Assembly: GCA_023301245.1 (NCBI GenBank)
Contig: JALZUV010000044.1
Coordinates: 1-61,671 of the forward strand
Reading direction: 5' to 3'
Source of the DNA: Rickettsiales bacterium
Lineage (GTDB): Bacteria; Pseudomonadota; Alphaproteobacteria; Rickettsiales; JALZUV01
Length of the DNA: 61,671 nucleotides
Under the pieces are notes generated by a model that searched no databases, was not told where the DNA came from, and was given only the letters and a program-made list of their open reading frames with translations. A program made the translations under genes and the position numbers. Shown in pieces: positions 1,000 to 61,247 of this stretch. Numbering within the stretch: position 1 is the first letter of the stretch; each line of letters opens with the position of its first letter.

Positions 1000-1028
1000 T
1001 TGCCGTCTTCGCAAACGTTTGCTATATT
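1000..1028 (+). promoter_or_regulatory. sigma70-like promoter TTGCCG-17-TATATT with the palindrome in the spacer
   Basis: -35 at 1000-1005 and -10 at 1023-1028. TGCTATATT also reads as an extended -10. Confidence 0.45.
1011..1022. repeat. GCAAACGTTTGC palindrome copy 1 (intergenic, in promoter spacer)
   Basis: Exact 12/12 match; flanks tc/ta. Confidence 0.95.
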
Positions 1029-1080
1029 AACTTACGAACCGCGAAACGGCAAACCTGCTTAATACGCTAAAGGATAAAGC

Positions 1081-1419
1081 ATGACTTTCGACAATTTTCC
1101 TATTACCCAGAACGACACTAATCGGATTACGCCCCCTGTCAAACTCGTGCACAACATATACCAGCATTGGCGCAATAAAAAATACTACATCATTGACGAC
1201 TTCGCTTGGAACGGCGACGACGATACGTGGATGGTGGTTCACCGCGAGGTAGAGAACTTCGAAGGTACGGGAGCCATGGTAACGGGCAAGCGCATCTTCG
1301 TGAGATCAGTTCCGAACTTCTTCGGGGACGTAGCGGGACGCGGGGACAAGGCGGGGACCTTAATCAAGCGCAACGAATTACGTCTAGACGCCAACGGACA
1401 GAAACCGACCACAGCGTGA
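1081..1419 (+). CDS. hypothetical protein
   Basis: 112-aa ORF with AAAGGATAAAGC upstream of the ATG. No motif recognised. Confidence 0.5.
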   Translation: MTFDNFPITQNDTNRITPPVKLVHNIYQHWRNKKYYIIDDFAWNGDDDTWMVVHREVENFEGTGAMVTGKRIFVRSVPNFFGDVAGRGDKAGTLIKRNELRLDANGQKPTTA

Positions 1420-1423
1420 AACT

Positions 1424-1903
1424 ATGTCAAATATAAACAACCACATTCTCGTACCTGTGATAGACGCGGAAAACGTAGGCCCTATAACCAGCTTTGAATT
1501 TAACAAAACCGTAAAGGCACATGATGCGGTCATGCTACCCGCGTATCAGGTCAAAGGCTTCGGACGGTCTTTAAAGTGGGGTCGGGCATCTCTTATACTA
1601 CACGGAGATAGCGATTTCCTAGGTCGGGTATTATCAACCACAGCGCGCGTACGAGACCAAGGGCAAATACCTTACGGTTATGTTATGTGCGAACATTCTT
1701 TACGGTCCCTTAGGCGTGACGCTTGGGGAGCTGTAACCTACGGACCCAACGCAGACCAAGTTAACCTCATGGGGTTGCCCGTCGAGACTATACGCAACAT
1801 GCGCTTCCCACAGATCGTTGTCTTACACAGCAACAGACCAAAAGACCTTAACCGCGATAACGTGGAAGCGGAGAGAAGGATAATACAAGATGTACGTCGA
1901 TGA
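1424..1903 (+). CDS. hypothetical protein
   Basis: 159-aa ORF, tightly packed after the previous gene. Confidence 0.5.
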   Translation: MSNINNHILVPVIDAENVGPITSFEFNKTVKAHDAVMLPAYQVKGFGRSLKWGRASLILHGDSDFLGRVLSTTARVRDQGQIPYGYVMCEHSLRSLRRDAWGAVTYGPNADQVNLMGLPVETIRNMRFPQIVVLHSNRPKDLNRDNVEAERRIIQDVRR

Positions 1904-2225
1904 ACTAGCCGCCCTACGCTATGTACGAAACGATGTAAGCGCGGGGAGGTGGACCCAAAACGCATTTGCCCGAACCCGTACGGGACGGAAAGTAAAAACC
2001 TTCGACAGGTTAGCCATTAAGTGGTGCCTATCCTCCCTCATATACCTGCACACCAAAAATGACTTACCGTCCCGCAGGTGGCTAGTACACGCGGTGACCA
2101 ACGAAATACAGAGAGTTCACAAGGGAAGATACACCTCTATACAAGAGTTCAACGATAGCGTAGAAACGACCTTGCAGGATTTACAGAATATCCTAGCAAA
2201 CGTTTGCAAAGCTATGGAGCCTTAA
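1890..2225 (+). CDS. hypothetical protein
   Basis: 111-aa ORF overlapping the previous stop by 14 nt. Carries a palindrome copy 18 nt before its stop. Confidence 0.5.
   Translation: MYVDELAALRYVRNDVSAGRWTQNAFARTRTGRKVKTFDRLAIKWCLSSLIYLHTKNDLPSRRWLVHAVTNEIQRVHKGRYTSIQEFNDSVETTLQDLQNILANVCKAMEP
2196..2207. repeat. palindrome copy 2 (in CDS, 18 nt before stop; read as ANVC)
   Basis: Exact match. Confidence 0.95.
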
Positions 2226-2226
2226 C

Positions 2227-3818: not shown

Positions 3819-4226
3819 GTAATAACCTCACATGTAAAACTACTGGAAATTCTGATGTTTGATACACAATTTATTGGCGCAGCCGCCGTTGTCCTCTTCG
3901 CTTGGTTAGGTATGGAGATGCACATACCCGACAGCTTCCCGCTAGTGGCGGCGGCGACACTAGGCTCTTTATCCTCCGCTACGATACGAATACAAGAAGG
4001 TTATATAAAAGGGTTCTGGCCTACCCTACTAGCCTTCATTACTGGGCTAGCTTTTGGGTGGTTCGTGGGGAAGAACATAGGACCTCTAGTAGGATTTGAC
4101 GGAACTGCATTGGCACTGCCCATCTTCATAACAGCTACCTTTGGCGCAAAAGCAGTACATTACTTATCCACTAAATTTGACATAGCATCGGTTATAGATG
4201 GTATAGCTATCAGGCTTAAAAAATAG
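3810..4226 (+). CDS. multi-pass membrane protein (possible holin; start may be 3855)
   Basis: 3-4 hydrophobic helices (FIGAAAVVLFAWLGM, FPLVAAATLGSLS, FWPTLLAFITGLAFGWFVG, ALALPIFITATFGA). ATG 3810 is buried in a 10-bp inverted repeat. Confidence 0.5.
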   Translation: MWPVITSHVKLLEILMFDTQFIGAAAVVLFAWLGMEMHIPDSFPLVAAATLGSLSSATIRIQEGYIKGFWPTLLAFITGLAFGWFVGKNIGPLVGFDGTALALPIFITATFGAKAVHYLSTKFDIASVIDGIAIRLKK

Positions 4227-4237
4227 CAAACGTTTGC
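4226..4237. repeat. palindrome copy 3 (starts on last base of stop codon)
   Basis: Exact match. Confidence 0.95.
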
Positions 4238-4308: not shown

Positions 4309-4551
4309 ATGTCACGTATGTCACAACTCAACGAAGCCGATAAACTCCTTGGAGCACGGGTCCGTAAACAACGTGAAATCGCGGGCATGACTATGCAAGC
4401 TCTCGCAGACACCATAGGCAAAACGCAGCCTTACATCTCTCGCCTAGAGGCGGGAAAATATAAACTCAAACTAACGATGGCGGCAAAGATCGCTAAAGCA
4501 TTAGGTGTAACTCTCGACGAACTAGCAGAACCGATAATGGAGCTAACATGA
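4309..4551 (+). CDS. XRE-family helix-turn-helix transcriptional regulator
   Basis: LGARVRKQREIAGMTMQALADTIGKTQPYISRLEAGKYKLKLTMAAKIAKALGV is a canonical HTH_3 (Cro/C1-type) domain. Confidence 0.9.
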   Translation: MSRMSQLNEADKLLGARVRKQREIAGMTMQALADTIGKTQPYISRLEAGKYKLKLTMAAKIAKALGVTLDELAEPIMELT

Positions 4552-5321: not shown

Positions 5322-5333
5322 GCAAACGTTTGC
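5322..5333. repeat. palindrome copy 4 (intergenic, starts immediately after the stop codon, 12 nt before next ATG)
   Basis: Exact match; 20-bp palindrome CTAAGCAAACGTTTGCTAAG-like flanks. Confidence 0.95.
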
Positions 5334-6854: not shown

Positions 6855-6866
6855 GCAAACGTTTGC
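6855..6866. repeat. palindrome copy 5 (intergenic after amidase)
   Basis: Exact match. Confidence 0.95.
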
Positions 6867-6904: not shown

Positions 6905-7552
6905 ATGCCTATCAAAAAGCGCAAAGCGCAAGATCAAACTCTCATACACCCCATGCTTAGGCAGGGACGGAAAACAGCAATACTCTACAGGTATATCGCA
7001 GCCACAGGGGAAAAGGGCACCACGTCTTGGCACCTAAAGCAACAGCCTGTCTTTCACCCGCAGTTACTAGCCGACCTCATAAATGAGGGCCTTGTATCCA
7101 AGCACGACCAGCCACCTAGCGTAAGTCCGTACAAACTATATACCGCCAACAAACATGCTGAGAGCTTAACACAGCGTGTAGAGATACAGATACAGGTTGA
7201 GGTCTACGAAAACGAGAACGGAATGATAGGAGTACGCTGCTCACCTATGGACACCCTAACGAACATAGTAAGCGACGGCGCGCTGCATATTCACTCAAAA
7301 ACACTTAAGTTCAAATTGCCTCGCAGATGCGAGAGTGCAGGGACAAAAGTCTTCGGAAAAGTTAAGCTTGACGACGAGGCCGAATTGTTAGATGGTATAG
7401 TAATTATCAAATCATCTGGCGACTTTAAAGCGCCACAAGTTATCGAAGGCGTTGCGTCTAGGAAGGTAAAAAGTGAAGCTTTCAGTGTTCGGCATACGAA
7501 ACTTGAGGGGCCAGCCATACGGGGACTACTCACATACAGTCCAAGTAATTAA
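6905..7552 (+). CDS. hypothetical protein, possible winged-helix DNA-binding N-terminus
   Basis: Starts MPIKKRKAQ with a GGAG SD. RQGRKTAILYRYIAATGEKGTTSWHL...LINEGLV looks wHTH-like (weak). Confidence 0.45.
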   Translation: MPIKKRKAQDQTLIHPMLRQGRKTAILYRYIAATGEKGTTSWHLKQQPVFHPQLLADLINEGLVSKHDQPPSVSPYKLYTANKHAESLTQRVEIQIQVEVYENENGMIGVRCSPMDTLTNIVSDGALHIHSKTLKFKLPRRCESAGTKVFGKVKLDDEAELLDGIVIIKSSGDFKAPQVIEGVASRKVKSEAFSVRHTKLEGPAIRGLLTYSPSN

Positions 7553-7832: not shown

Positions 7833-7859
7833 ACCTGTAATTTGCCACTTGGAGTAACC

Positions 7860-9446
7860 ATGGCTCGTAAGAAAAAAGACCCGAAGAAGCTAACGCGGGG
7901 CGAAGTATACCGACCTAGACTACGTATAGTTATAGACCCGATATACGTACAGATCGCGAACCTTTCATCCAGTTCGACCTACCACAAATACGTTACGTTA
8001 GTACGAGAGCTAGCGGCGCGCGGGCATTTCATTTATTGGTCAGTACCCGATGCGGAATACGTACCCAATGAAGTAGAGAGTTTGCCGAACGTAGGTATTG
8101 TGCGGACTAGCAGCATTCAAGACCAGTTCGTAATCGACGGCGTACAAACCGACCAGTTCTTTAACCTATTCAACCGTACAGGGGGCAAGTTCCACGCGGA
8201 TGTCGTATGTACTTCTCGTAACAGTCTCGCCCTTACCTATAAGCGTCAACTTGACCCGCCGCGCTTCCATGACAACAAAGGCGAATACACCGACAAGTCC
8301 TATGGCATGCCCTTGGTACTTATCGAAGAGTTCCCGCAAACACCTGAGCGTCAACACACGGGGGAAGCCTATTGGTTATCCCAAGTCCTAGGATACTACG
8401 CAGCGGACAAGACCGTTTTCCTATCCGACCATAACCGTAGCGAAGTCGTCAAAGCCATGATGCCCTTCGTCACAAACAGCGTAGTACGGGACTTTACGGA
8501 ACGTGCCAAGGTCATACCCGCAGGTATAGAACGTGAAGAACTTGATAAGATATACAAGCCTAACCGCTGGAAGGTAGAAGACGGCTTCAACGTGCTATGC
8601 GTCGGGCGCATATTCGGGCCTTCCTACATTGAGTACCTAGAATGGTTTAACCACTTCTTTAAGATAGGTAATGAGGCCACACTGACGGTTTCCCTGTCTG
8701 GTAAGTTCTCTGGGCCAATGAAGAAAAAGCTGCGTAAGATAGGTTTCGATTACGACAACAACATCGGTAGGCAGTTCAAAATCATTGAGAACAATAACCG
8801 TAAGAACTTCCTAAAGATGCTGCAAAAGTATCAGGCCTTCGTATGCCCACTATCTCACTTGGACCACCCCACGGGGTTATTCGAGTGCATTTACCTTGGA
8901 CTTCCGGGAGTTATACCCGTTTCAGACTATCAACAAACGTTCTTCTCCGATTGGCCATGGGTTATAGACCCTCGCGATAAGGTCGGCCTCATAGCCATGC
9001 TTAAGGACATACAGGCGGACCCCCAAGCTGCTCGCGATAAAGTCCTCCCATGGCGGGAACGGATTGCGGACCTATACGACGCACCGACTAACATCAAAGT
9101 CCTAGCGGACGTTATCGAGAACGTAGCAAGAAAAAAATCAGACTATTTCCGCACGTCTCGCGGCGTCATCGACATCTGCAAAGAGATGAAGGGCAAAGAG
9201 TACGGCTGGGCGGACGCATTCGCCTATACCAAGACAGCTGGTACAATGGGCGTCAGCGTCGGGGACATGTCTATGCGGACAACCTTCACCTACGGGAGAG
9301 GGACCCTAAACCACGCCATGCACTGCGCGGGTTATGTAGACGACTGTAAAGGACCCATGGAAAACTTCGTTAGGGCAGATGTATTCGATGCCCGTCACGG
9401 CGGTAAGAAACGTCGCAAACGTTTGCGTAAGAGGAAATCAAAATGA
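7860..9446 (+). CDS. GT-B fold glycosyltransferase-like protein with polybasic termini
   Basis: N-terminal Rossmann-like half (VIDPIYVQIANLSSSS...LARGHFIYW). C-terminal half VLCVGRIFG...GLFECIYLGLPGVIP resembles the GT1/GT4 E-x7-E region. Ends HGGKKRRKRLRKRKSK. Confidence 0.45.
   Translation: MARKKKDPKKLTRGEVYRPRLRIVIDPIYVQIANLSSSSTYHKYVTLVRELAARGHFIYWSVPDAEYVPNEVESLPNVGIVRTSSIQDQFVIDGVQTDQFFNLFNRTGGKFHADVVCTSRNSLALTYKRQLDPPRFHDNKGEYTDKSYGMPLVLIEEFPQTPERQHTGEAYWLSQVLGYYAADKTVFLSDHNRSEVVKAMMPFVTNSVVRDFTERAKVIPAGIEREELDKIYKPNRWKVEDGFNVLCVGRIFGPSYIEYLEWFNHFFKIGNEATLTVSLSGKFSGPMKKKLRKIGFDYDNNIGRQFKIIENNNRKNFLKMLQKYQAFVCPLSHLDHPTGLFECIYLGLPGVIPVSDYQQTFFSDWPWVIDPRDKVGLIAMLKDIQADPQAARDKVLPWRERIADLYDAPTNIKVLADVIENVARKKSDYFRTSRGVIDICKEMKGKEYGWADAFAYTKTAGTMGVSVGDMSMRTTFTYGRGTLNHAMHCAGYVDDCKGPMENFVRADVFDARHGGKKRRKRLRKRKSK
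9415..9426. repeat. palindrome copy 6 (in CDS, 20 nt before stop; RKRL)
   Basis: Exact match. Confidence 0.95.
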
Positions 9447-10342
9447 AAAATAAAACAAGAAAACGCTTAGTCGGCGTAGGCAGCTCAGTAACCGAGGGCC
9501 TTACACGGTCTGAGAAAGTCGTGGTATTCTCTGTACCGATTAACTTGCTTGTTGCGCATAAGGCCAACCCCAACGAACAGAACGAGGCGACCTTCGACCA
9601 GCTCGTGCAGAAGATCGCAGAGGACGGACAAGACGAGCCTATCAACGTATTCCCCGAGATTTTAAAAGGGTCTCATACGGGCAAGTTTGTAATCTACTCA
9701 GGTCATCACCGTTTGAAAGCGTGTAAAGCCAACGGCTTCGAAACCGTCGAGTGTATTATCCGCGAAGGCTGGGACGACGATAAAGTAGCTATTGAGTTGG
9801 TAGCCCGTAACCAATTGCGAGGCGCACCTAACCCAGAGAAGTTCACAAAAATCTACAACGACCTTAAGAAGCGTCACGACCCTGAATTCCTTAAAGCTCA
9901 AATGGGCTTCAATAAGCGAGGGGATATAGACAAGCTCATTAAGAATGCAGGTGAGCATATGTCTGCTAAGGGTAAGGCCCGCCTAGCGGAAGCTAAGGAA
10001 GAGGTCACATCCGTAGAGGACTTGGGCAACATCATTAACCAAATCTTCCGAGAAGAGGGAGCCAAACTAGACCACGGACTTATCGTGTTCAGCTTCGGTA
10101 CAAAGAAGCATCTGTATATCAAATCCACAAAGGCATTGAAAACTGTCATGGATAGGCTTATGGATGACGCGGAAACTCACGGCGTAACAATGGAGGGTGC
10201 TCTACTGTCCGCTATACAACAGACACCTATCTCAGAGGCCGAGAAGGCTGGTAACTACACAAACGGAACTTCGAAAAATGGCAAAACGAAAAAGAAAGCT
10301 AAAGCTAAGACCAAAAAGAAAATCCGTAAGCGTATCACCTAG
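9443..10342 (+). CDS. ParB-like nuclease/partition-domain protein
   Basis: NPNEQNEATFDQLVQKIAEDGQDEPINVF...FVIYSGHHRLKACKANGFETVECII is the ParB/Srx N-terminal domain (GxxR box as GHHR). C-terminus KKKAKAKTKKKIRKRIT. Confidence 0.8.
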   Translation: MKNKTRKRLVGVGSSVTEGLTRSEKVVVFSVPINLLVAHKANPNEQNEATFDQLVQKIAEDGQDEPINVFPEILKGSHTGKFVIYSGHHRLKACKANGFETVECIIREGWDDDKVAIELVARNQLRGAPNPEKFTKIYNDLKKRHDPEFLKAQMGFNKRGDIDKLIKNAGEHMSAKGKARLAEAKEEVTSVEDLGNIINQIFREEGAKLDHGLIVFSFGTKKHLYIKSTKALKTVMDRLMDDAETHGVTMEGALLSAIQQTPISEAEKAGNYTNGTSKNGKTKKKAKAKTKKKIRKRIT

Positions 10343-10982: not shown

Positions 10983-13083
10983 ACTCGTAAAGAACAATCG
11001 GCCTGCCTTAGTAGCGACACCTCGCAAACGTTTGCTAAAGCCTAAACGCCGCAAGCTCATACGACCTACACCTAGGTTCGAACCTCGCGAAGACTTATCC
11101 GTAGACGAGCAAATCCACATACTGCTAGAGACAATCGTTGCCGAGGTATCGGAAATCGACGACCCAGAGCACGCGACTATGTGGTTGGATGCGTTAGAGA
11201 ACTTCCAGCGTTCGGGCGACGTAGAGGACCTTATGAAGGTCACCGAGTGGAAGCGTCCCGTCGTACCCCTCGAAGAGTTTATGTTCTCGTCTGCCTACCT
11301 TGGGCTACAGCAAAGCCAGATATACCCCTCCGTCGTAGAGACTGCTCACCACCTAGACGACGGCGACTATCGGGAAGCTGTATTCAAGGGGGCCTTGGGT
11401 ACGGGTAAGACCACGCTCGGCAACATTATGATGGCGCGGGACGTATACAAAATATCGTGTATGAGATCGCCGCAAACATCCTTTGGTATCCAAGCCAAAT
11501 CATCTATCGTATTCACCATCCAGTCCGTCCGCCTAGGTACAGCGAAAAAAGCCGTCTTTGACGAGCTGGGACACTATATGCGAAGTTCTCCGTACTTTAT
11601 GCAGAAGTATCCATATAACCCTAACGTCACGTCAGAGATGCGCTTCGAAAGCCAGAACGTCCGTATCATCCCTGTGTCATCATCCAATACAGCGGTTATC
11701 TCTATGAACGTCATCGGCGGACAACTGGACGAAATGAACTTCATGCAGAAGACGACAAACTCAAAGCATCAAAACGCAGATGACGCGGGTAAGTTCGACC
11801 AAGCCAAGGCCTTATACAACACACTGTCCCGTCGTAAGAAATCTCGTTTCGCGAATAAGGGTAAGTTGCCGGGAACCTTGTACTTGATTTCATCTTCTCG
11901 CTTCCCAGATGACTTTACCGAGCTTAAAGCCGCAGAGAGCACAATGATGGGCGGAGACGACCCAAGCATATACGTGTACTCACATAGCCAATGGTCTGCT
12001 AAGGGCCGAGATGCCTTTATGGACGAAGACTTTCAAATGCAGGTCGGTAACGACAGGTATCGTTCACGCGCTCTAGACGAAGACGAAGAGCCAGACATAG
12101 GGTGCGAAACCATACCCGTGCCTATGGACTTCCATTCGGAATTCGTAAAAGACCCAGACGGCTCGCTACGTGACTTCGCGGGCCTCACAACACTGTCTAC
12201 AAATCCCTTCTTTAACCAGCGCCACTTCATTGACCAATCCATGCGGGAAGCACAGAAGCACGGATACGAAAACCCATTCGCCATGGAGCAAGTGGATTTA
12301 ACTATCGGTCTGCCTACGCCTGACGCAACCAAGCTACGGACGGACGTACCAAGTGAGCGCCATTGCCATATTGACTTGGGGCTATCTCGCGATGCTTGTG
12401 GATTTGCCGTAGGGCATTTGGCAGGGCATAAAATCATACAGACGGTAGACCCTGTAACCAAGCAACGACGCTATGACATCAAACCTATAATCGCGTACGA
12501 TGTCATCATGCGTATCCTGCCGCCCCCTAACGGTGAGATACAGATATCCGATGTACGAAAGCTGCTAACAAATCTTAACGACTTGTACGGCCTCAACATA
12601 ACGTCGGTAACAACCGATGGCTTCCAATCAACAGACACGCGCCAGATACTAAAACGTCGCGGGTTCAAGACGGGCTACCAATCAGTAGAGAAAGTCGAGC
12701 CTTGGCGCTCATTCAGGGAGGCCCTATATGATGGCCGCATCCTCATGTCCCCTAACCAGCATGCGAAGAAAGAGCTGGTCGAGCTTGAGACCTCAATAAA
12801 GAACAACAAAGAAAAGGTAGATCACAGCCCGAACGGTACGAAAGACGTTGCCGACGCTATTGTAGGTGTAGCCAATCATATCTTAAGACAAAAGGTTTCA
12901 TGGAACCCTTCGGTTATTGACGGAGGAACTTCTGGTACATTCTTGCTAGGTACTCTATCCGAAGAGGAACTATCGGAAATGAAAGAGAACGAAACCGACG
13001 ATGGTAACCGACGTATTAACCGACGCCCACGGCCAAAAAGAAAGCGGGCTATCCGACGTAAGCGGGTATCAAGGAAAGCTTAA
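10972..13083 (+). CDS. terL: terminase large subunit
   Basis: Walker A FKGALGTGKTTLG, Walker B IGGQLDEMNF, and a C-terminal RNase-H-like nuclease region (HIDLGLSRDACGFAVGH...TTDGFQS...DHSPNGTKDVADA). Polybasic N- and C-terminal extensions. Confidence 0.85.
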   Translation: MALKLVKNNRPALVATPRKRLLKPKRRKLIRPTPRFEPREDLSVDEQIHILLETIVAEVSEIDDPEHATMWLDALENFQRSGDVEDLMKVTEWKRPVVPLEEFMFSSAYLGLQQSQIYPSVVETAHHLDDGDYREAVFKGALGTGKTTLGNIMMARDVYKISCMRSPQTSFGIQAKSSIVFTIQSVRLGTAKKAVFDELGHYMRSSPYFMQKYPYNPNVTSEMRFESQNVRIIPVSSSNTAVISMNVIGGQLDEMNFMQKTTNSKHQNADDAGKFDQAKALYNTLSRRKKSRFANKGKLPGTLYLISSSRFPDDFTELKAAESTMMGGDDPSIYVYSHSQWSAKGRDAFMDEDFQMQVGNDRYRSRALDEDEEPDIGCETIPVPMDFHSEFVKDPDGSLRDFAGLTTLSTNPFFNQRHFIDQSMREAQKHGYENPFAMEQVDLTIGLPTPDATKLRTDVPSERHCHIDLGLSRDACGFAVGHLAGHKIIQTVDPVTKQRRYDIKPIIAYDVIMRILPPPNGEIQISDVRKLLTNLNDLYGLNITSVTTDGFQSTDTRQILKRRGFKTGYQSVEKVEPWRSFREALYDGRILMSPNQHAKKELVELETSIKNNKEKVDHSPNGTKDVADAIVGVANHILRQKVSWNPSVIDGGTSGTFLLGTLSEEELSEMKENETDDGNRRINRRPRPKRKRAIRRKRVSRKA
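11024..11035. repeat. palindrome copy 7 (TerL codons ~18-22; RKRL)
   Basis: Exact match. Confidence 0.95.
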
Positions 13084-13091: not shown

Positions 13092-13103
13092 GCAAAACGT
13101 TGC
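13092..13103. repeat. degenerate palindrome variant GCAAAACGTTGC overlapping a -35 box
   Basis: One-base shift relative to the consensus. Same placement relative to TTGCTT as copy 21. Confidence 0.6.
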
Positions 13104-48259: not shown

Positions 48260-48271
48260 GCAAACGTTTGC
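48260..48271. repeat. palindrome copy 22 (intergenic)
   Basis: Exact match. Confidence 0.95.
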
Positions 48272-51847: not shown

Positions 51848-53170
51848 ATGGTTAAAAGAACCGACGCGGAACTATTCAGCGCACTCGTTACGCGTGGTAG
51901 TAAATCCGACGTACTCAAACTACCCGACGTACTCGTGATGGACCCTGACGCCAGAGAGATCATGCAATGGCTTAAGGCATACGTCACAGACTACCGACGT
52001 GTGCCGTCCGCTAAGATTATGAAACGACAGACGGGGTTTAAAGCCGTCGAGGTATCGGAGGGCGTCAGCTACTACCAAGACGAAGCTCGCAAACGTTTGC
52101 TATATACGGAATTCCTAGGACCGTTCGGCGACCTGCGAGATGCCATGGCGGACAAATCCCCTGAGGAAGTCGTCTTGCTAGCCCGCCAGATTATCGGGAT
52201 ATACCAAACCACAGCCGCCAGAGACGACGGGATAGCAGCCCTATACGACGTGGCCCGTGACGTTGTGGCGGATTATCATATCGCCCGACATACGGTAGGC
52301 TTACGGGGAACTTCCAGCGGTTGGACATGGATGGACGAACAAACAGACGGTTTCCAAAAGGGCGACCTCATAACATTCGTTGGTAGGCCGGGGGTAGGCA
52401 AGTCAACCTTGCTTCTATACACCGCACTGCACTCATGGTTATCAGGCAACTCGGTCCTATTCCTATCCATGGAGATGCCAGCCCTACAACTCGTGCGTCG
52501 TTTCATTGGTCTATGGACGGGTATCAACCCCCAGCTTATTAAGCGGGGTAGGCTATCTACGGACGCTAGGGACTTTATGACTAGCAGCATCGAAGGGATA
52601 CCTGACATGCCAGAGTTCCGTATCATGGCGGGTAACTTCCGTAAGTCGGTTGGGTCACTCCGCGCCGCTGCCGAAGAGATGGAACCCGACGAAATAGACG
52701 CAGACGCGTCCTACCTTATCCAGCCCGATAGCAAGGCCAACAACAAAGCGTCTCGTAGGGAAAACGCAGCGGACACCATTGAGGGTCTAAAAATGCTAGC
52801 ACTAGACTTGGACAGACCACTTAAGCAATCCGTACAGTTTAATCGCGCTGCCACTAAGCCCAAGTCATCTGGCACAGAGAACGCAAACCCCGTGGCACAT
52901 CTAGGACTAGACAAGATCGGTGAAACCGACGTCATCGGGCAATCATCGTCTATCGTAGTCGGTATCGAAACAGGCGACCCGCCGCATGCTCACTCAGAAA
53001 GATACCTCGGAATTCTCAAAGGAAGGGAAGGAGAATTCGGTTGGATGAAAATTAACTACCAATTCCAGCCTGCAAACTTTTCGCAGATTACGACAAGCGC
53101 AGAAGCTAATCGACCTGCATTAACTGGGACCCGTCCCGTAGACCTCTCACACATGGACAGCGTAGCATAA
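51848..53170 (+). CDS. dnaB: replicative DNA helicase (DnaB family)
   Basis: Walker A FVGRPGVGKSTLLLYTA, then VLFLSMEMPALQLVRRFIG, a RecA-like C-terminal domain, and an N-terminal helical domain. Confidence 0.85.
   Translation: MVKRTDAELFSALVTRGSKSDVLKLPDVLVMDPDAREIMQWLKAYVTDYRRVPSAKIMKRQTGFKAVEVSEGVSYYQDEARKRLLYTEFLGPFGDLRDAMADKSPEEVVLLARQIIGIYQTTAARDDGIAALYDVARDVVADYHIARHTVGLRGTSSGWTWMDEQTDGFQKGDLITFVGRPGVGKSTLLLYTALHSWLSGNSVLFLSMEMPALQLVRRFIGLWTGINPQLIKRGRLSTDARDFMTSSIEGIPDMPEFRIMAGNFRKSVGSLRAAAEEMEPDEIDADASYLIQPDSKANNKASRRENAADTIEGLKMLALDLDRPLKQSVQFNRAATKPKSSGTENANPVAHLGLDKIGETDVIGQSSSIVVGIETGDPPHAHSERYLGILKGREGEFGWMKINYQFQPANFSQITTSAEANRPALTGTRPVDLSHMDSVA
52089..52100. repeat. palindrome copy 23 (DnaB; RKRL)
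   Basis: Exact match. Confidence 0.95.
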
Positions 53171-55938
53171 TGACAAAACGTAAAGTAAAAAAAGATAAGC
53201 GCGGTTCCAAGAAAATGCCTGAGGGTGTTTTGTGGTTCGGGGACTTGAACGCTAATACAGTATTCGTAGTGGATACCATCGTAGGGCGGGAAGAGGACGG
53301 CGACGAAGCACCTAAGACAACCAAACCCCTCAGTAAAGCGAACTTGTCTTTCTTCTCGCGCTTCCTAAAAGAGGCCAAGATTAAAAAGTCGGACCTCGCC
53401 ATCGTGTGTTGCGCACCGCCTGTAACTGCGGACATGTGGCAACGGGGCAAAGCCATGGGGGACCATCTCAAAGCTCATAGAGCCGCATTCGTAGAAGCCA
53501 TAGAGCTAATAGACCCCAAGCTTATCGTACCCATGGGAAAGTACCCAGCCACGCAAGTCGCGGGACGTTCAGTTGCCATCACCAAAGTACGGGGACTACC
53601 AACACACAACGAAGCGTGGAACCGCGTTGTCATGCCAGCCTTCGGCGTTAACCACGTCCGACGTATCCCAGACAATGAAGCCCTATTCCGTAACGACATG
53701 TTGACCGTGGGAAATCTCGTATCGACAAACTACAGCATCGACTACGAAGAAGAGATCGAAACGGATTACAGGTATTGCACGGACATCAGCTTCTTACTGA
53801 AAAACCCACCCAAGGACCTATGCGTAGATTGCGAGTGGACGGGGGGTGAATGGTTCCAGCCCAAGTCAAAACTCCTAACGGTACAGCTCACATGGGAAGA
53901 AGGGAAAGCCGTCTCCATACCTATCAACTACCCACGCTACGAACGGGAAGTACAGAAGCTTACCAAGAAAGATAAAGCCCGTATCAAGGCACAGCTCAAA
54001 AAACTGCTAGAGAACAAAAAGGTTCGAGTGTTCGGGCATAACTACAAGGCCGATTATTTATACCTACTAGGCAAGCTAGGTATAGACACCGCCACATTCT
54101 CAGACGACACAATGCTCATGGTGCATATGCACGACGAGAACATGCTCTCCAAATCTTTGACAGATTGCATACGACGTTTCGTGCCAGCCATGTCGGGCTA
54201 CTCTGATGACTTTGACCGAGACCCTATCCATCAAGGTAAATCCCGTATGGACCTCGTGGACCCACAAGACATGATGATGTACGGCTGTGGCGATACGGAT
54301 GCGACCTTCCGACTGTGGGCGCACATGCGGGCCTTGCTTAAAAAGGACAAGAACCTCTACCGCTGCTATAAGCGTGTAAAGATGCCAGCCACCCGCTCGT
54401 TCTGTAAGATTGAACAATCAGGCTTCGACGTTAGCAAACGTTTGCTAAGTACATTCGAGACGAAAATTAGGAAGCATCAAAACGCAGAATATGCGCGTCT
54501 AGTCGCCATGGTTCCTTCTCACATACGTAAGGAATACCTAGAAGACAGCGGCAACCCCTCTATCACTCGTGGGGCCTTCCTTATCAGGTTCCTATTCGGT
54601 AAAAAGAGCACGGGGGGCCTAGGATTTAAGCCACGCGTATTCACTAAGTCTACCAAGATGCTCAAAGATAAAAACATGCGCGTGCCGTCTACATCAACTA
54701 AAGACCACTTCCCGTACTTTCTAGGGGAGCACCCTTTCATCGAAGGCATTATTGACTTCGTTAAGAACGAGAAAATGCTAGGCACGTACGTCGGCAGTGA
54801 GAGGGACAATACAGGCTTCTACAAATACATCTTTGACGATAAAATTAGACCTTCCTACCTCCTGCATCGCACAGTCACGGGCCGTACAGCGTCCGCTAAT
54901 CCGAACGGGCAGAACTTCCCTAAACGCGGCATGTTCGCAAAAGATTATCGCAAAATCTTTATTGCGCCACGCGGCTATTGTCTAGTCGAGGTCGATTACT
55001 CACAAGTAGAACTACGTATCGCGGCCATGATGGCAAACGAACCGACCATGCTGGAAATCTATGCAAGGAACGGGGACATTCATGCGGCAACCGCTGCGAA
55101 AACCATGGGCGTAACCCTCGAAGAGTTTATGAAGCTGCCGAAGAAAGAGCGGGGCTTCAAACGGTTCCAAGCCAAGGCGATTAACTTCGGCTTCCTATAC
55201 GGCATGTGGTGGAAATCATTTATTGTGTACGCCAAGACGGACTACGGTATCGACTTCACGGAAGAGGAAGCACAGAAAATCCGTAATGACTTCTTCGACC
55301 TCTATAAGAACCTAGAGCCATGGCATGCGGCGGTTAAAGACTTCGTGAACACCAATGGTTACGTTAAATCTTATGACGGCGGTATCCGTCACTTGCCTAA
55401 CATCTTCTCGCCAGAGCAAAGCATCGCTAAGATGGCCGAGCGCCAAGCGGTTAACTCGCCTGTCCAAGCCCAAGCGTCTAACCTTGGCCTAATAGCCATG
55501 GCCCGCATACAGCGCTATGTCGACCCTGAGCTTGTGGACATCAAAGGGTTCATCCATGATGCGCTTATCTGCCTCGTACCCGAGGACAGAGCCATAGAAG
55601 CTATCCTTGAGATCAAAAAGCAAATGGAGAACTTGCCCCTCAAAGAGATGTTCGGATGGCAACCAAGTATCCCACTTATGGCGGAAGCAGAAATCGGCAA
55701 GAACCTTTCCCAAATGGTCGAGGTCGAGCATAGCTGGTACAAGGACAAGAACATCAAAAGCTATCAGGACATACTCATAGCCGAGTGGAAAGCTGAGTGC
55801 GACGAAGCTAAGGCCGAGGGTAAGCGACCACCTCGTATGCCTAAGGTATTAGTGGACGGATATAAGCACCCAGAACCCGAACGGACTGTTAAGCCGAAAC
55901 AAGTAAAACGAAGGAAAAGGAAGCTCGTTCTCGCTTGA
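53170..55938 (+). CDS. polA: family A DNA polymerase with N-terminal UDG-like domain and 3'-5' exonuclease
   Basis: Exo I VDCEWTG, Exo II HNYKADYLYL, Exo III YGCGDTDATFRL. Pol motif A LVEVDYSQVELRIAA, motif B RFQAKAINFGFLYGM, motif C GFIHDALI. The first ~190 aa are family-4 UDG-like. Confidence 0.95.
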   Translation: MTKRKVKKDKRGSKKMPEGVLWFGDLNANTVFVVDTIVGREEDGDEAPKTTKPLSKANLSFFSRFLKEAKIKKSDLAIVCCAPPVTADMWQRGKAMGDHLKAHRAAFVEAIELIDPKLIVPMGKYPATQVAGRSVAITKVRGLPTHNEAWNRVVMPAFGVNHVRRIPDNEALFRNDMLTVGNLVSTNYSIDYEEEIETDYRYCTDISFLLKNPPKDLCVDCEWTGGEWFQPKSKLLTVQLTWEEGKAVSIPINYPRYEREVQKLTKKDKARIKAQLKKLLENKKVRVFGHNYKADYLYLLGKLGIDTATFSDDTMLMVHMHDENMLSKSLTDCIRRFVPAMSGYSDDFDRDPIHQGKSRMDLVDPQDMMMYGCGDTDATFRLWAHMRALLKKDKNLYRCYKRVKMPATRSFCKIEQSGFDVSKRLLSTFETKIRKHQNAEYARLVAMVPSHIRKEYLEDSGNPSITRGAFLIRFLFGKKSTGGLGFKPRVFTKSTKMLKDKNMRVPSTSTKDHFPYFLGEHPFIEGIIDFVKNEKMLGTYVGSERDNTGFYKYIFDDKIRPSYLLHRTVTGRTASANPNGQNFPKRGMFAKDYRKIFIAPRGYCLVEVDYSQVELRIAAMMANEPTMLEIYARNGDIHAATAAKTMGVTLEEFMKLPKKERGFKRFQAKAINFGFLYGMWWKSFIVYAKTDYGIDFTEEEAQKIRNDFFDLYKNLEPWHAAVKDFVNTNGYVKSYDGGIRHLPNIFSPEQSIAKMAERQAVNSPVQAQASNLGLIAMARIQRYVDPELVDIKGFIHDALICLVPEDRAIEAILEIKKQMENLPLKEMFGWQPSIPLMAEAEIGKNLSQMVEVEHSWYKDKNIKSYQDILIAEWKAECDEAKAEGKRPPRMPKVLVDGYKHPEPERTVKPKQVKRRKRKLVLA
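54434..54445. repeat. palindrome copy 24 (PolA; SKRLL)
   Basis: Exact match; 18-bp palindrome TTAGCAAACGTTTGCTAA. Confidence 0.95.
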
Positions 55939-56605: not shown

Positions 56606-57096
56606 TGAGCGATAAACCCGACCTGTCCGTTATGTTTTCCGATGCGTTCGCTGACGACGCAGAAGTTCCCATAAATATAAACTTGCCAGCGATAGGCACA
56701 AGCCACGTCATAGGCTATCTAACCGATGACGAGATCGCAGCTTTCAAAGATATCATGGCGTCAATGGACACTATAGAAACTTTGCTGGACGAACTAGACG
56801 ATACTGAGGCCGCAATGTATAACCGTCTTGTGTCCAGCCCGCCCCCTGCGGAGATAGGCACAGCCCTGATACACCTTATGGGACGGAACCCCCAAGAGTA
56901 TGCCCGCGTCATATCTTGTAAGGACCGCGTTATCGCCGCCAAGGAGGCCGCAGCAAAGCACACCATGCTCTACTCCGTGTTTTGGTATCAGCTTCGCAAA
57001 CGTTTGCAAAACGTTAAAAACTCTAGCCTCACTATTCGGGAAGGCTACACTATCTGCGACGTCGGCCCATGGATAAAACTGTCGAAAGACTTCTAA
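56605..57096 (+). CDS. hypothetical acidic protein
   Basis: 163 aa. ATG overlaps the previous stop. Confidence 0.5.
   Translation: MSDKPDLSVMFSDAFADDAEVPININLPAIGTSHVIGYLTDDEIAAFKDIMASMDTIETLLDELDDTEAAMYNRLVSSPPPAEIGTALIHLMGRNPQEYARVISCKDRVIAAKEAAAKHTMLYSVFWYQLRKRLQNVKNSSLTIREGYTICDVGPWIKLSKDF
56996..57007. repeat. palindrome copy 25 (in CDS; RKRLQ)
   Basis: Exact match. Confidence 0.95.
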
Positions 57097-58273: not shown

Positions 58274-58291
58274 AACATATAGGAAACCGTA

Positions 58292-59188
58292 ATGGCCATT
58301 AAGAAACGCCCATCGTCTAAAGCCGCTCTAAAGAGCAAATCGTCCAAGCGAAAAAAGCCTAAGGTCGAAGAAGAGGACGTAAAGTCCAAAAAGAAAAAGC
58401 CCAAAAAGTCCAAGGACAAATCAGCGAAGTCCCGCAAGGACAGTAAATCCCCAAAGCGTTCGCGCGGCTCCAAAGACAGCCCATTCGGCGGCGCTCGTAA
58501 AGAGAAAGCCCGCAGAGATAAAGAGCGAGAAACACGCAACAACAAACCGTTCGACTTCTACATAAAGGACGGAGAAAAAGCCAAGTATTACATCCTCGAC
58601 GATGGCGAGCCTTACACAGGGTACGAACATAGTCGGTATAATCCGAACCTACGCAAAGGTGCACGTCAGCAAGACCCAGTACCTTGTATCAAGGAGCGGG
58701 ATATCTGCCCCGCTTGTGAAGCGGACGGTAAAGAGGGTTACTGGTTCATGGCGGTTACTGTCGTTGTCGTATCTGCCACGGGCATGGATAGTAAATACAA
58801 ATACCGCAAAAAGCTTATGAAGATTAAGTCCGGCTCGGCCCCCAAGTTCGAACGCTTGTATGCCAAGAAAGGAAGCTTCCGTGGTATGATGCTAGAGGTC
58901 GCGCGTGACGGTGATAAGTCACCGAGTATCGGCAACGACATCGACTTCGTGGAATTCCTCTCCGAAGCTAAGATGAAAAAGCTTGCAGCCAAATACAACG
59001 TTAAGGACAAAAAGGGCAACGTTGTATCGGACATCACAAAAGCTACTGATTACAAGAAAGCTTTCCCTAAGCTTTCCCGTAAGGAACTTGAAAAACTTTA
59101 TGGCCGTACAAGCGGCGGAGCTTTGGGTGAAGAGGACTTCGGCGACGACGAAGACGACGACGATTACGCCCTCGACCTTGACGATTAA
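58292..59188 (+). CDS. putative ssDNA-binding protein (gp32-like layout) with ~85-aa polybasic N-terminal extension and acidic C-tail
   Basis: FYIKDGEKAKYYIL...YEHSRY...PCIKERDICPACEADGKEGYWFMAVTVVVV resembles the T4 gp32 His/Cys3 Zn region. The tail EEDFGDDEDDDDYALDLDD is typical of phage SSBs. Confidence 0.45.
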   Translation: MAIKKRPSSKAALKSKSSKRKKPKVEEEDVKSKKKKPKKSKDKSAKSRKDSKSPKRSRGSKDSPFGGARKEKARRDKERETRNNKPFDFYIKDGEKAKYYILDDGEPYTGYEHSRYNPNLRKGARQQDPVPCIKERDICPACEADGKEGYWFMAVTVVVVSATGMDSKYKYRKKLMKIKSGSAPKFERLYAKKGSFRGMMLEVARDGDKSPSIGNDIDFVEFLSEAKMKKLAAKYNVKDKKGNVVSDITKATDYKKAFPKLSRKELEKLYGRTSGGALGEEDFGDDEDDDDYALDLDD

Positions 59189-59194
59189 CGTGCA

Positions 59195-60829
59195 GTGAAG
59201 CCGTCAATACAATACCACCCGACGAAGCGGGGCAGGTTGCCTATAGTTAGCTCTATGGTCTACCTGCCTTGTAGTCATGTCCGTAACATCCCCGAGCTTA
59301 TAAAATACCTAACGGTAGAGTATAACCCAAACGTGGACGGACAGGACGGGGAGCCTGAGTATATCCGACTGTATGACCTCCAAACACACAAAGGCTATAT
59401 AGGCTTGCCTAGAGCTTTCGCTACAGAGCAGCTTAGCAAACGTTTGCTTCATTACATGGACCACACGATTAAGCCCACAAAGAAATTCAAATACCCTGCC
59501 AAGATTACGCCACGCGATAAGCAACAGGCGGAATTCATGGAAGACCTGCAACGGGCTTGCACCGAGCATAAACTAGGTGCCGTGGACTTTAGCGCTAAAG
59601 CCAAGACGGGCGCGGGTAAAACAGTCTCACTACTCAAAACGATAGCTGACATGGGCATAGGCCCCGTTCTATTCCTCGTGCATATCAACAGCCTTAAACG
59701 ACAATGGGTTGGGGACGTTAAAAAGAAAAATGGTATCAAGTATTTTTTCGGTAAAAAGTGGACCAAGAAAAACGTAGGTATCGTACAGCAAGACATTTGT
59801 GATTATAAAGGAAAAAGCTTGGTAGTCGGTATGCTACCATCTATAGCGAGAAGAGATTATGGCGAAGATTTTTACAATAACTTTACTGCTGTGTTTTGGG
59901 ATGAATTACACAAATCCGCAGCCCCTATGCTATCTAAGACGCTATCAATGTTCCCAGCGGCAATACGCGGCGGTGTTACGGCTACACCGAGAGAGGGCGC
60001 TTTATCGCGGGTCACAAATACCCACCTAGGCTCTGTATCTATAATCTCCGAACAGGACGTAATGTCGCCTAAGGTTATCCGTGTACGCCTAAAGCCGTCA
60101 GAGCCTACGAAGCTCAACACCTTCAACAAGTATACGATAATAACATCCCTCACACGCTGGGACGCCCGACAAAAGCTACTCACCAAGATCATAAAGAAAC
60201 ATGGATACGATAATGGCCGACAGGTTCTAGCCTTATCTGATAGGACAGCCCAGCTAGCGGATATTCGACGCAGGCTTATTGCGCAGGGCGTACCACAAAG
60301 CGAGATAGGTCTATACGTGGGGTCCTATGATACGGGAAACTATATCGTCAGACGGCGGGGACCAGACAGTAGCCGTCACATAAAGGTTAAAGACGAAAGC
60401 TTCACAAGCAAGTACAAGGCCCAAAAGTATATAAAAGCACAAGACGACGATGCCGATTATATTATAGACAACGAAATACACTCTCCGAGCATTAAAGAGC
60501 TTGAACGTATATCTAAAAGATGCTCTATAGTTTTGGCCACCTATGGCATATTCGATACAGGCGTCGATATACCTAGACTGGACATGGGGGTAGAATGCAG
60601 CCCCCGTGGAAACGTAACGCAAGCGCTTGGACGGGTCCTACGCCTGCTAAAAGGAAAGGATACACCTACTTGGTGGACTATAGACGACGTTCTACATACT
60701 CTGGACGACAAAGGTGCCGTAGAGTGGTTCGAACAGTTTATACAAGCCAGTAATGCACGTACGAGGTCTTATACAGAGCAGAAAGCTGAAATCTCTCGTA
60801 CTTCGGTGAAAATAAAGAACAATGACTAA
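59195..60829 (+). CDS. superfamily 2 (DEAD/DEAH-like) helicase
   Basis: Motif I AKTGAGKT, motif II WDELH, motif III VTATP, motif V ATYGIFDTGVDIP, motif VI QALGRVLR. GTG start (uncertain). Confidence 0.8.
   Translation: MKPSIQYHPTKRGRLPIVSSMVYLPCSHVRNIPELIKYLTVEYNPNVDGQDGEPEYIRLYDLQTHKGYIGLPRAFATEQLSKRLLHYMDHTIKPTKKFKYPAKITPRDKQQAEFMEDLQRACTEHKLGAVDFSAKAKTGAGKTVSLLKTIADMGIGPVLFLVHINSLKRQWVGDVKKKNGIKYFFGKKWTKKNVGIVQQDICDYKGKSLVVGMLPSIARRDYGEDFYNNFTAVFWDELHKSAAPMLSKTLSMFPAAIRGGVTATPREGALSRVTNTHLGSVSIISEQDVMSPKVIRVRLKPSEPTKLNTFNKYTIITSLTRWDARQKLLTKIIKKHGYDNGRQVLALSDRTAQLADIRRRLIAQGVPQSEIGLYVGSYDTGNYIVRRRGPDSSRHIKVKDESFTSKYKAQKYIKAQDDDADYIIDNEIHSPSIKELERISKRCSIVLATYGIFDTGVDIPRLDMGVECSPRGNVTQALGRVLRLLKGKDTPTWWTIDDVLHTLDDKGAVEWFEQFIQASNARTRSYTEQKAEISRTSVKIKNND
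59436..59447. repeat. palindrome copy 26 (SF2 helicase; SKRLL)
   Basis: Exact match. Confidence 0.95.
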
Positions 60830-61247
60830 ACGGAAACTTAAACTTCGCAAACGTTTGCAAAGCACTGAGAAGCGGCCTAAGCAACGTAAATCACTTTCTA
60901 TCGACCCCCTGTCTAACAAGCACCGTATAAAGGACATCGCAGTCTCACGGCTCGTAACCCTGCCCAGCGGCAAGGAACGCAATCTACTGACGTTTAGTAA
61001 GAACGAACTCGCGGAACTCATGGACACGTCCTATATGAGTATAGATCGCTGGGTTGCTAAGGGCCAAATACCTGCCCCCGTTCTAGTTTGCGGAAAGAAG
61101 ACTTATTGGTGTATAAACGAAGCCCTAGCCATTCTCGAACCTGTCGGGAAGCACTTGCGCACCTCCTCCTATTATACTACAAACGATATAAGCGTTCGGG
61201 ACAGTATATCTCGGCGCGTATCAACAGTAAGAGCCACTACTCATTAG
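60822..61247 (+). CDS. putative DNA-binding protein (AlpA/excisionase-type HTH)
   Basis: ELMDTSYMSIDRWVAKGQIPAPVLVCGKKTYWCINEALAIL resembles MerR/AlpA-type HTH_17. N-terminus MTKRKLKLRKRLQSTEKRPKQRK. Confidence 0.45.
   Translation: MTKRKLKLRKRLQSTEKRPKQRKSLSIDPLSNKHRIKDIAVSRLVTLPSGKERNLLTFSKNELAELMDTSYMSIDRWVAKGQIPAPVLVCGKKTYWCINEALAILEPVGKHLRTSSYYTTNDISVRDSISRRVSTVRATTH
60847..60858. repeat. palindrome copy 27 (25 nt into HTH gene; RKRLQ)
   Basis: Exact match. Confidence 0.95.

Follow-up and report, generated by a model that had tools for sequence, protein, structure and literature searches.

We analysed a 61,671-nt stretch of DNA (positions 1 to 61,671 of the forward strand of contig JALZUV010000044.1, GenBank assembly GCA_023301245.1; hereafter the window), which belongs to a siphovirus with lambda-like tail-tip genes and has all of its genes on the + strand. 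The window carries an array of the 12-bp palindrome GCAAACGTTTGC. We found that this palindrome array is real and non-random and that it is a lineage-wide feature of siphoviruses with the same gene order. The reading we favor, at a probability of about 0.4, is that a dimeric DNA-binding protein encoded by the phage, most likely a ParB-like protein, recognizes or loads at these evenly spaced sites and acts on the whole genome.

Copy number, spacing and location of the palindrome

An initial annotation of the window had counted 27 perfect copies of GCAAACGTTTGC. A computational scan likewise found 27, each starting at the same position (Table 1), while 100 dinucleotide-preserving shuffles contained none. 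Two near-copies had also been proposed, and these are the only degenerate copies in the window. The one at 49707 stood, with a single mismatch (GCAAACGTTTGG); that at 13092 (GCAAAACGTTGC) has intact arms but a shifted centre and 3 mismatches. Further matches with two mismatches, at 2505 and 10514, are at chance level (2.5 matches with two or fewer mismatches expected). The flanks weakly extend the dyad to about 16 to 18 bp. On the 5' side we observed C at -4, T or C at -3, T at -2 and C or A at -1; on the 3' side, G, T or A at +1, A at +2 and A at +3 (22 of 27 sites). The previously reported frequencies of T at -2 (25 of 27) and A at +2 (22 of 27) were reproduced, and the perfect 18-bp palindromes TTCGCAAACGTTTGCGAA and TTAGCAAACGTTTGCTAA were both found. 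The site form in the window is T[C/A]GCAA-ACGT-TTGC[G/T/A]A.

Neighboring sites are 598 to 4033 bp apart, 2301 bp on average. The coefficient of variation (CV) of these gaps is 0.40, compared to 0.95 for random placement, and none of 20,000 simulations was as regular (P<5e-5). The extreme gaps were individually improbable in the same simulations, with P=4.5e-4 for the longest and P=3.5e-4 for the shortest. These data support the earlier impression that the sites had been deliberately spread along the DNA.

About 14 of the 27 sites lie within some 20 nt of a stop or start codon. The non-coding part, only 4.9% of the window, is about 6-fold enriched in sites; most of the largest intergenic regions, the expected place for promoters, have none. 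Another 12 sites lie deep inside genes, mostly long ones. These in-gene copies use all three reading frames, encoding most commonly xKRLx, then SQTFA and then ANVC. Hence, the signal resides in the nucleic acid and not in protein, and we rejected a protein motif. Three sites are located in the 9.4-kb gpJ-like gene, 2.4 to 2.6 kb apart; together with a site at the midpoint of the tape measure gene, they fit the spacing rule.

Arrays in related phages

No phage record in the collection searched matched the window at the nucleotide level (megablast). Judged by its proteins, the window is closest among isolates to Agrobacterium phage JP1 and to the Rhodobacter RcF-cluster phages, which share its gene order. 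A search of related phages for the motif, as had been suggested, found the same word in JP1 and sister words in others. JP1, whose PolA is 47% identical, carries 23 exact copies of GCAAACGTTTGC, in the form TTGCAAACGTTTGCAA, and about 20 variants with one or two mismatches. The RcF-cluster phage RcKickapoo has no GCAAACGTTTGC and carries instead GCAATCGATTGC, in 22 exact and 26 one-mismatch copies. Metagenomic relatives were recovered via the glycosyltransferase-like, ParB-like and AAA-ATPase proteins. They include arrays of TTGMTAACGTTAKCAA and GCAGCCGTCTGC and carry the JP1 word, the RcKickapoo word or others, such as TTG[A/C]TAACGTTA[T/G]CAA, cTTGCAG-CCGT-CTGCA, GCAA-CCCG-TTGC, GCAA-TCAA-TTGC and GAAA-TCAA-TTTC. 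Arrays were also present in Stenotrophomonas phage DLP_5 (GCAA-TCAA-TTGC, 13 in 28.7 kb), Pseudomonas phage SM1 (GCAA-RCGY-TTGC), Aeromonas phage HJ05 (TTGCAA-CCGG-TTGCAA), Rhizobium phage TM16 (GTGCAA, a variable AT-rich N4, TTGCAC) and Vibrio phage KarBoss (TTGACA-TTAA-TTGCAA).

The general form is TTGCAA-N4-TTGCAA, at about one site per 2 to 4 kb, in phages of Agrobacterium, Rhodobacter, Rhizobium, Stenotrophomonas, Pseudomonas, Aeromonas and Vibrio and in many metagenomic contigs. What the sites share is a pair of inverted TGCAA arms around a lineage-specific 4-bp centre (ACGT, TCGA, TCAA, CCGG, CCGT and others). The sister palindromes differ symmetrically in both half-sites. This agrees with the proposal that the array belongs to the phage lineage and suits a dimeric DNA-binding protein, one that would co-evolve with its sites. 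The comparisons further show that the core changes in concert at all sites as lineages diverge. A likeness to cyanobacterial HIP1, or to host-type palindromes generally (REP/BIME among them), had been raised as well; we judge it unlikely, as the type of motif goes with the phage lineage even where hosts differ.

Even spacing also holds for JP1, for RcKickapoo and for 16 of 17 further related loci (CV averaging 0.46 versus 0.84 for random placement). Some positions are orthologous: the window and JP1 share an alignment column in the scaffold-like gene, and all three phages have a site at the 3' end of the portal gene and just past the helicase gene. Other positions have moved within the same gene between the three phages. 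In the scaffold-like gene, the site imposes the residues QTFA in the window and JP1 and is absent from RcKickapoo. Positions are thus either kept or moved while the spacing persists, and we therefore conclude that selection keeps a site in about every 2 kb. We regard the array, its regular spacing, its conservation in relatives, the concerted change of its core, the turnover of its positions and the lack of promoter, terminator or RNA signals (see below) as established.

No prophage relatives were found in scans of 185,579 species-representative genomes. In the literature searched, no paper mentions any of these words in connection with a phage, and the strings "palindrom" and "motif" are absent from the paper on the RcF cluster.

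A wider group of relatives, drawn from IMG/VR via the AAA ATPase, bears other iterated words. In L159, overlapping 10-mers of 7 to 8 copies each assemble to the palindrome CTGGCGTGCACGCCAG, and in L162 they assemble likewise to GCGCCATGGCGC (six copies); L197 carries GTATGGTATAA 12 times and L216 carries CGTGAGCCTC 10 times. Judging from these words, arrays of such a kind may be more general than the TGCAA family.

Candidate readers and competing explanations

If our preferred reading is right, a dimer of a phage-encoded, sequence-specific protein would read each site on the DNA, nucleate there and act on the neighboring 1 to 2 kb by spreading, sliding or bridging, so that a site at least every ~4 kb would cover the entire genome. 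Its purpose would be to handle phage DNA on the scale of the genome, be it by silencing, compacting or partitioning it, by marking it as self to be packaged or by directing the adjacent glycosyltransferase-like enzyme to it, and not to control individual genes. The identity of the reader, its spreading from the sites and its purpose are what we infer here.

The most likely reader would be the conserved ParB/Noc/KorB-like protein encoded at 9443-10342, just upstream of the terminase. Its AlphaFold2 model (predicted local distance difference test score 80) has an N-terminal domain followed by a helix-turn-helix (HTH) domain, as in the ParB fold. Foldseek matched these two domains to those of Noc, ParB and KorB over 185 to 231 aligned columns (E values of 1e-7 to 1e-5, target TM ~0.5), with KorB structures 8qa8 and 8qa9 among the best. 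Noc, ParB and KorB bind 13- to 16-bp palindromes, and KorB uses 12 dispersed operators on plasmid RK2. The OB operators of KorB are like the sites described here in being 13- to 16-bp palindromes scattered over a replicon of ~60 kb, many of them far from promoters; the window sites are likewise dispersed, including at positions far from promoters, and the candidate reader is modelled with the ParB N-terminal and HTH fold. The two systems differ in that the ParB-like candidate lacks the GERR motif, in that no ParA/IncC or KorA partner was found, in having 27 to 50 evenly spaced sites versus 12, and in the position of the gene within a viral glycosyltransferase-terminase module.

That module consists of a glycosyltransferase-like gene (~490 to 530 aa), a small open reading frame (ORF), the ParB-like gene, a TerS-like gene and TerL, and it recurs in phages of Proteobacteria. 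Coordinates of the module or of its glycosyltransferase/ParB-like part are 7473-13083 in the window, 983-7058 in JP1 (L121), 9715-16660 in RcKickapoo (L123), and 12210-17321, 9939-15370, 10527-15725 and 12292-14726 in L143, L239, L240 and L142, respectively. Glycosyltransferase and terminase genes flank the ParB-like gene in JP1, RcKickapoo, DLP_5 and TM16; in KarBoss it is flanked by unannotated ORFs of matching size (~500 aa for the glycosyltransferase). In DLP_5 and TM16, nucleotide-sugar epimerase and aminotransferase genes precede the module. An Arthrobacter phage, KellEzio, has the glycosyltransferase/ParB-like portion too; there the two genes adjoin, and the stretch examined holds no terminase. 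Among the proteins compared within the lineage, few are as well conserved as the glycosyltransferase-like protein (58% identity to JP1, 53% to RcKickapoo), which matched no Pfam or PHROG family. With the exception of KellEzio, the examined phages of the ParB-like subfamily all have arrays: JP1, the RcF phages, DLP_5, TM16, KarBoss and at least 13 metagenomic loci.

Several observations weigh against the ParB-like protein as the reader, or against a symmetric dimer altogether. The CTP-binding motif GERR (GERRxR) is replaced by SGHHR in 34 of 34 homologs. No protein scanned in the window, which may be incomplete, belongs to a ParA-type family. Instead of a few origin-clustered parS sites (TGTTNCACGTGAAACA), there are 27 dispersed sites of a different sequence. 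None of the residues in the putative HTH was seen to track motif type, and in this region the ParB-like protein from the type D locus barely differs from type A proteins. KellEzio has the glycosyltransferase/ParB-like module and no array in the 17.8 kb examined. Conversely, tblastn found no match to the ParB-like subfamily or the glycosyltransferase-like protein in the partly examined loci of SM1 and HJ05, whose arrays are of lower density; the SM1 regions examined for the module contained no terminase. The TGCAA arms are conserved although the candidate binders are only 20 to 40% identical, and a very conserved reader would fit better. The constant adjacency of the ParB-like gene to glycosyltransferase and terminase genes points to packaging or modification and not to classical partition or repression. 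Finally, the strand asymmetry of variant sites described below is not predicted by a symmetric dimer on duplex DNA. The nomination of the ParB-like protein in the initial annotation thus held up in part: the protein is conserved in all close relatives and gives a Noc/ParB/KorB-type model, but no residue-motif covariation could be demonstrated for it, and it lacks the GERR motif.

In a bolder form, the arrays would be a genome-wide self-addressing system of a large siphovirus group that has so far escaped notice. The non-canonical SGHHR ParB-like protein would load at sites no more than ~4 kb apart and then direct the adjacent glycosyltransferase/terminase machinery along the phage DNA, or it would use a strand-specific (minus-strand hairpin) form of the site; the core would be re-set in concert at all 30 to 50 sites with each divergence. 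Taken whole, we think this proposal unlikely, with a probability of about one in five.

Other candidate readers fared as follows. The HTH protein at 60822-61247, named in the initial annotation, had no family match. The winged-helix protein and the small XRE-family protein (Table 1) are taken up below. A lambda-O-like protein was rejected: it has iteron-like repeats of its own and occurs in relatives without the motif. Its ORF (50158-50532, a weak match to the winged-helix lambda replication protein O) is directly followed by three tandem 22-bp repeats, TATGAACCCGCAAATTCTGCGCC, at 50528-50595, which are a candidate iteron-type replication origin.

Among the alternatives, the best supported turns on the strand asymmetry of variants. 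In 17 genomes or loci, non-complementary arm positions read A.C on the + strand in 76 cases, G.T in 12 and something else in 7; A.C on the + strand is a G.T wobble on the minus strand. Similarly, the JP1 centre variant ACAT occurs nine times and its mirror, ATGT, never. At 4-fold degenerate sites, the ratio (A*C)/(G*T) was 0.36 to 1.45, and from this composition we rejected a genome-wide mutation bias of that size as the source. The asymmetry is robust, and it fits a site form in which the minus strand pairs to itself. Perhaps the sites are hairpins that form on the minus (template) strand while it is single-stranded and serve as priming, primosome-loading or restart signals for the DnaB-like, DnaG-like and gp32-like single-stranded DNA-binding protein (SSB) machinery, with ~2 kb as the Okazaki length? 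Okazaki fragments span a range that covers the 0.6- to 4-kb spacing. Non-palindromic central tetranucleotides are tolerated, as loops would be; 20-mers fold as single-stranded DNA at -6.5 to -7.1 kcal/mol; and the + strand has A>T and C>=G throughout. However, type B sites are unpaired at +/-5 (A..G, C..T, T..T), as expected for half-sites read independently, the -1/+1 pair is unpaired in half of the window sites, and a single genome can have asymmetric centres facing either way. The 12-mer alone yields only -1.3 kcal/mol. A minus strand serving as lagging template implies forks running head-on to all transcription, and helicase-coupled primases do not normally require hairpin signals. We consider such hairpins unlikely, though the strongest of the competing explanations.

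Somewhat less likely again is a stoperator-like array through which a small repressor, either the XRE protein (4309-4551) or the winged-helix protein (6905-7552), silences the whole genome, for example in a plasmid-prophage state. Cluster A mycobacteriophages carry ~25 to 35 stoperators per ~50 kb, mostly in short intergenic regions and some in genes, and their sequence co-evolves with the lineage, as here. The density of about one site per 2 kb and the intergenic/in-gene mix resemble both these stoperators and the Cluster O repeats considered below, and all genes lie on one strand. A site stands upstream of the XRE gene in the window and in L138. In both cases it precedes a promoter-like pair, TTGCAT-17-TATCTT at 4258-4286 of the window (about 21 nt downstream of site 4226) and TTGCAT-17-TACCTT at about 1873-1901 of L138. 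The relatives DLP3 and DLP5 are temperate, DLP5 being reported as a phagemid (PMC5834331), and RcKickapoo annotates an "immunity repressor." On the other hand, Cluster A stoperators are asymmetric 13- to 14-bp sites, oriented with transcription and bound by the monomeric immunity repressor of a temperate phage (PMC4351075), whereas the window sites are perfect palindromes and so have no single orientation; a strand bias appears only in the variants of relatives. Neither an integrase nor ParA was found in the window, which does encode an XRE-type protein, and the genome scans noted above gave no prophage relatives. The position of the winged-helix gene is conserved, but its recognition helix was not seen to track motif type. 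Moreover, the likely promoter regions are mostly without a site, and stopping transcription needs no even spacing within genes of 4 to 9 kb.

It is more doubtful still that the sites direct a covalent mark, such as T5-like strand-specific nicks, base modification or glycosylation, set by the ParB-like "nuclease" and the glycosyltransferase module as a self label or in preparation for packaging. The identity of the 12-bp core in 27 of 27 full sites, with two degenerate copies, is more typical of enzyme recognition than of operators. The module is conserved across very distant phages, a ParB-like protein is reported in a DLP3 virion preparation, and variant sites are strand-asymmetric. Restriction pressure also appears strong: of the 64 palindromic hexamers, 20 are wholly absent from the window (among them ATCGAT, CACGTG, AGATCT, GGATCC and CTGCAG, with ~14 copies of each hexamer expected), 14 from JP1 and 25 from RcKickapoo. 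AACGTT occurs once in RcKickapoo, and ATCGAT not at all in the window. This looks like broad restriction-site avoidance, and the retained 12- to 16-bp palindrome stands out against it. Yet JP1 and RcKickapoo tolerate many variants with one or two mismatches, and the SM1 and HJ05 arrays come without a detectable module in the parts of these loci examined. Glycosyltransferases adjoining structural genes can also act on virion proteins rather than on DNA. The same has been noted for such enzymes encoded next to the structural genes of Cluster O phages (PMC4351075).

A match that the initial annotation lacked is to the PurR box and other LacI/GalR operators. All 12 core positions of the E. coli box agree with the window palindrome, both are 16-bp dyads with a central CpG, and the C/G pair at -1/+1 is the commonest window flank. 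The array might then be a decoy that titrates a host LacI/GalR-family regulator (PurR or an equivalent) and de-represses nucleotide synthesis as phage DNA accumulates. The core is that of the palindromic PurR box (chromatin immunoprecipitation [ChIP]-derived motif ACGNAAACGTTTGCNT, purMN site TCGCAAACGTTTGCTT), the layout of LacI-family operators, in most cases with a CG step at the centre, recurs in every motif type, and PurR titration by cloned sites is documented (PMC3266220). However, no window protein has a LacI-type domain (Pfam), and the sites are not at purine genes but in structural and replication genes. Excerpts of a K-12 ChIP table hold 2 perfect cores versus 27 in 61.7 kb here, a roughly 200-fold difference in density on the basis of those excerpts. 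At -2/+2 the window has T/A and the PurR consensus A/T, and some relatives have CA, or a variable AT-rich sequence, at the centre. Because no LacI-type protein is encoded, because an Agrobacterium phage shares the core (with sister cores in phages of Rhodobacter, Stenotrophomonas and other hosts) and because a decoy needs neither even spacing nor sites inside 9-kb genes, the identity with the PurR box core is most likely coincidental, and we hold the decoy to be very unlikely.

Least credible of all is a role in ordinary gene expression, as promoters, intrinsic terminators or stem-loops in mRNA. In its favor, half of the sites fall at gene boundaries, TTGCAA is similar to the -35 hexamer TTGACA (present as one arm in KarBoss) and site 1011 stands between -35-like and -10-like hexamers. 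However, twelve sites are deep inside genes, and 228 aligned sites from 19 genomes or loci revealed no -10 element, no T-run and no conserved position beyond about +/-8 of the centre. Promoter- and terminator-like matches in a scan of 1 to 20 kb were no commoner than in shuffles, site 1011 being the only one within a promoter-like pair, and Rfam and tRNA scans gave no matches. We accordingly found the marks of neither an intrinsic terminator, nor a sigma-70 promoter, nor a known RNA family. An mRNA hairpin was rejected because the variants break + strand pairing (A.C) rather than keep it, and a mobile element (REP or MITE) because the flanks show no conservation and some sites stand in frame inside essential genes. 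These data bear out the earlier view that the motif is a DNA-level signal and neither a protein nor an RNA motif.

Relation to known repeats and other features of the window

The array belongs to a known kind, the dispersed operator-like repeats exemplified by Cluster A stoperators, Cluster O palindromes and plasmid KorB operators. The 17-bp repeats of Cluster O mycobacteriophages (TGTTCGGNNNCCGAACA; Cresawn et al. 2015, PMC4351075) are, like the sites here, inverted repeats with invariant arms and a variable or asymmetric centre. They number more than 30 per ~70-kb genome, about one-third intergenic, one-third near gene 5' ends and one-third within genes, and their function is unexplained; Cluster O phages also encode proteins with a ParB-like domain (PMC4351075). 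The window, too, has more than 25 inverted-repeat copies with invariant arms, distributed throughout and partly in genes. The two differ in sequence and in spacer (4 nt here versus 3 nt), and the hosts of Cluster O are actinobacterial, whereas relatives of the window infect Proteobacteria. Cluster O repeats crowd toward one end of the genome, and no even spacing has been reported for them, while the window array is even; nor has a cross-genus family with lineage-specific cores been described for them. DNA uptake sequences and Chi are also short words at a regular kilobase-scale density, such that any "self" stretch contains one. They differ in being host-chromosome features read by host machinery, and Chi is asymmetric and oriented.

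Dispersed phage repeat arrays have thus long been known; Cluster A stoperators are understood and Cluster O palindromes are not. Against the literature searched, three things are apparently new: a family of sites that crosses genera and has a core specific to each lineage, a clear rule of spacing, and variants that are asymmetric between the strands. A single site architecture extends over cultured phages of seven genera, and its lineage cores amount to a natural specificity-swap series for finding the reader. The spacing rule and the turnover of positions point to a function over ~2 kb of DNA rather than to single genes, and the strand-asymmetric variants can discriminate duplex from hairpin mechanisms. 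If the ParB-like protein is the reader, the common and functionally obscure phage "ParB-like nucleases" would gain a role, and a new way in which viruses organize or mark their DNA could come to light.

Table 1. Palindrome sites of the window and genes for candidate readers of the sites
Feature	Position	Strand	Context
Site 1	1011..1022		Intergenic, 12 nt past stop codon; between TTGCCG / TATATT promoter-like pair
Site 2	2196..2207		18 nt short of end of ORF 1890-2225
Site 3	4226..4237		Overlaps stop codon of 3810-4226; ~21 nt upstream of promoter-like pair preceding XRE gene
Site 4	5322..5333		Intergenic, immediately past stop codon; next start 12 nt on
Site 5	6855..6866		Intergenic, ~39 nt upstream of winged-helix candidate gene
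Site 6	9415..9426		Final 20 nt of glycosyltransferase-like gene; 16 nt before ParB-like start; encodes KRL
Site 7	11024..11035		52 nt into large terminase gene; terminase N-terminal region also has a site in JP1 and RcKickapoo
Degenerate site GCAAAACGTTGC	13092..13103		9 nt past terminase stop; JP1 site is 6 nt past its own terminase stop
Site 8	13763..13774		11 nt short of end of ORF 13129-13785
Site 9	16466..16477		Portal 3' end / protease start; orthologous sites in RcKickapoo and JP1
Site 10	18246..18257		Within scaffold-like gene; alignment column shared with JP1 site; encodes QTFA
Site 11	20068..20079		Within ORF 19779-20162
Site 12	24044..24055		Intergenic, 3 nt past stop codon
Site 13	27208..27219		Exact midpoint of tape measure gene: 2239 nt from start, 2243 nt to end
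Site 14	30638..30649		Within tail gene 30533-31309
Site 15	34671..34682		Within 9.4-kb gpJ-like gene, 2540 nt from start
Site 16	37275..37286		Within gpJ-like gene, 5144 nt from start
Site 17	39681..39692		Within gpJ-like gene, 7550 nt from start
Site 18	42320..42331		Intergenic; start codon 7 nt on
Site 19	42989..43000		Intergenic
Site 20	43587..43598		Intergenic / gene boundary
Site 21	45328..45339		Intergenic, upstream of AAA ATPase gene
Site 22	48260..48271		Intergenic
One-mismatch site GCAAACGTTTGG	49707..49718		Within ORF 49468-49998
Site 23	52089..52100		Within DnaB-like helicase gene
Site 24	54434..54445		Near middle of DNA polymerase gene
Site 25	56996..57007		Within ORF 56605-57096
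Site 26	59436..59447		Within helicase gene
Site 27	60847..60858		18 nt past helicase stop; JP1 and RcKickapoo likewise have a site just past helicase
XRE-family HTH protein (small), third candidate reader	4309..4551	+	Site in upstream region
Winged-helix-like protein, second candidate reader	6905..7552	+	Syntenically conserved, upstream of SLOG and glycosyltransferase genes
Glycosyltransferase-like protein, possible partner	7842..9446	+	Adjoins ParB-like gene
ParB/Noc/KorB-like protein, leading candidate reader	9443..10342	+	ParB_N, helical HTH-like domain, SGHHR motif, lysine-rich tail

The head and packaging genes of the window run in the order winged-helix-like, SLOG/DprA-like, glycosyltransferase-like (~530 aa), ParB-like, TerS-like and TerL. 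Its replication module comprises an AAA ATPase, RNase H, the lambda-O-like protein, DnaB, a fusion of uracil-DNA glycosylase (UDG) to PolA, a DnaG-like primase, SSB and a helicase. The array had been described as spanning a whole genome, a claim in need of correction: the window is probably not a complete genome, because it ends in a tandem repeat, its relatives measure 85 to 105 kb and it lacks the recombination genes that its relatives of 94 to 97 kb possess. Acidic-repeat coding arrays, (GACGAAGCCGAAGAG)n or (GAGGACGAA)n, lie at 17670-17854 and 61607-61671. The window terminates inside the latter, and the contig was therefore probably broken at this repeat.

Very basic protein tails or heads (KKRRKRLRKRKSK, KKKAKAKTKKKIRKRIT and MTKRKLKLRKRLQ) are encoded at 9400-9446, 10300-10342 and 60822-60880; the palindromes at 9415 and 60847, read in the K-R-L frame, encode part of such a basic stretch. 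The gpJ-like tail tip protein (32131-41538, 3135 aa) matches FNIII-A_GpJ and Phage-tail_3 at its N terminus. Some 2600 of its residues are without a family match, and its gene contains a 231-bp internal tandem duplication at 36118-36550. The DNA polymerase I (53170-55938) has an N-terminal UDG-like domain with a weak Pfam UDG match, and the polymerase of Pseudomonas phage SM1 carries the same UDG-type annotation.

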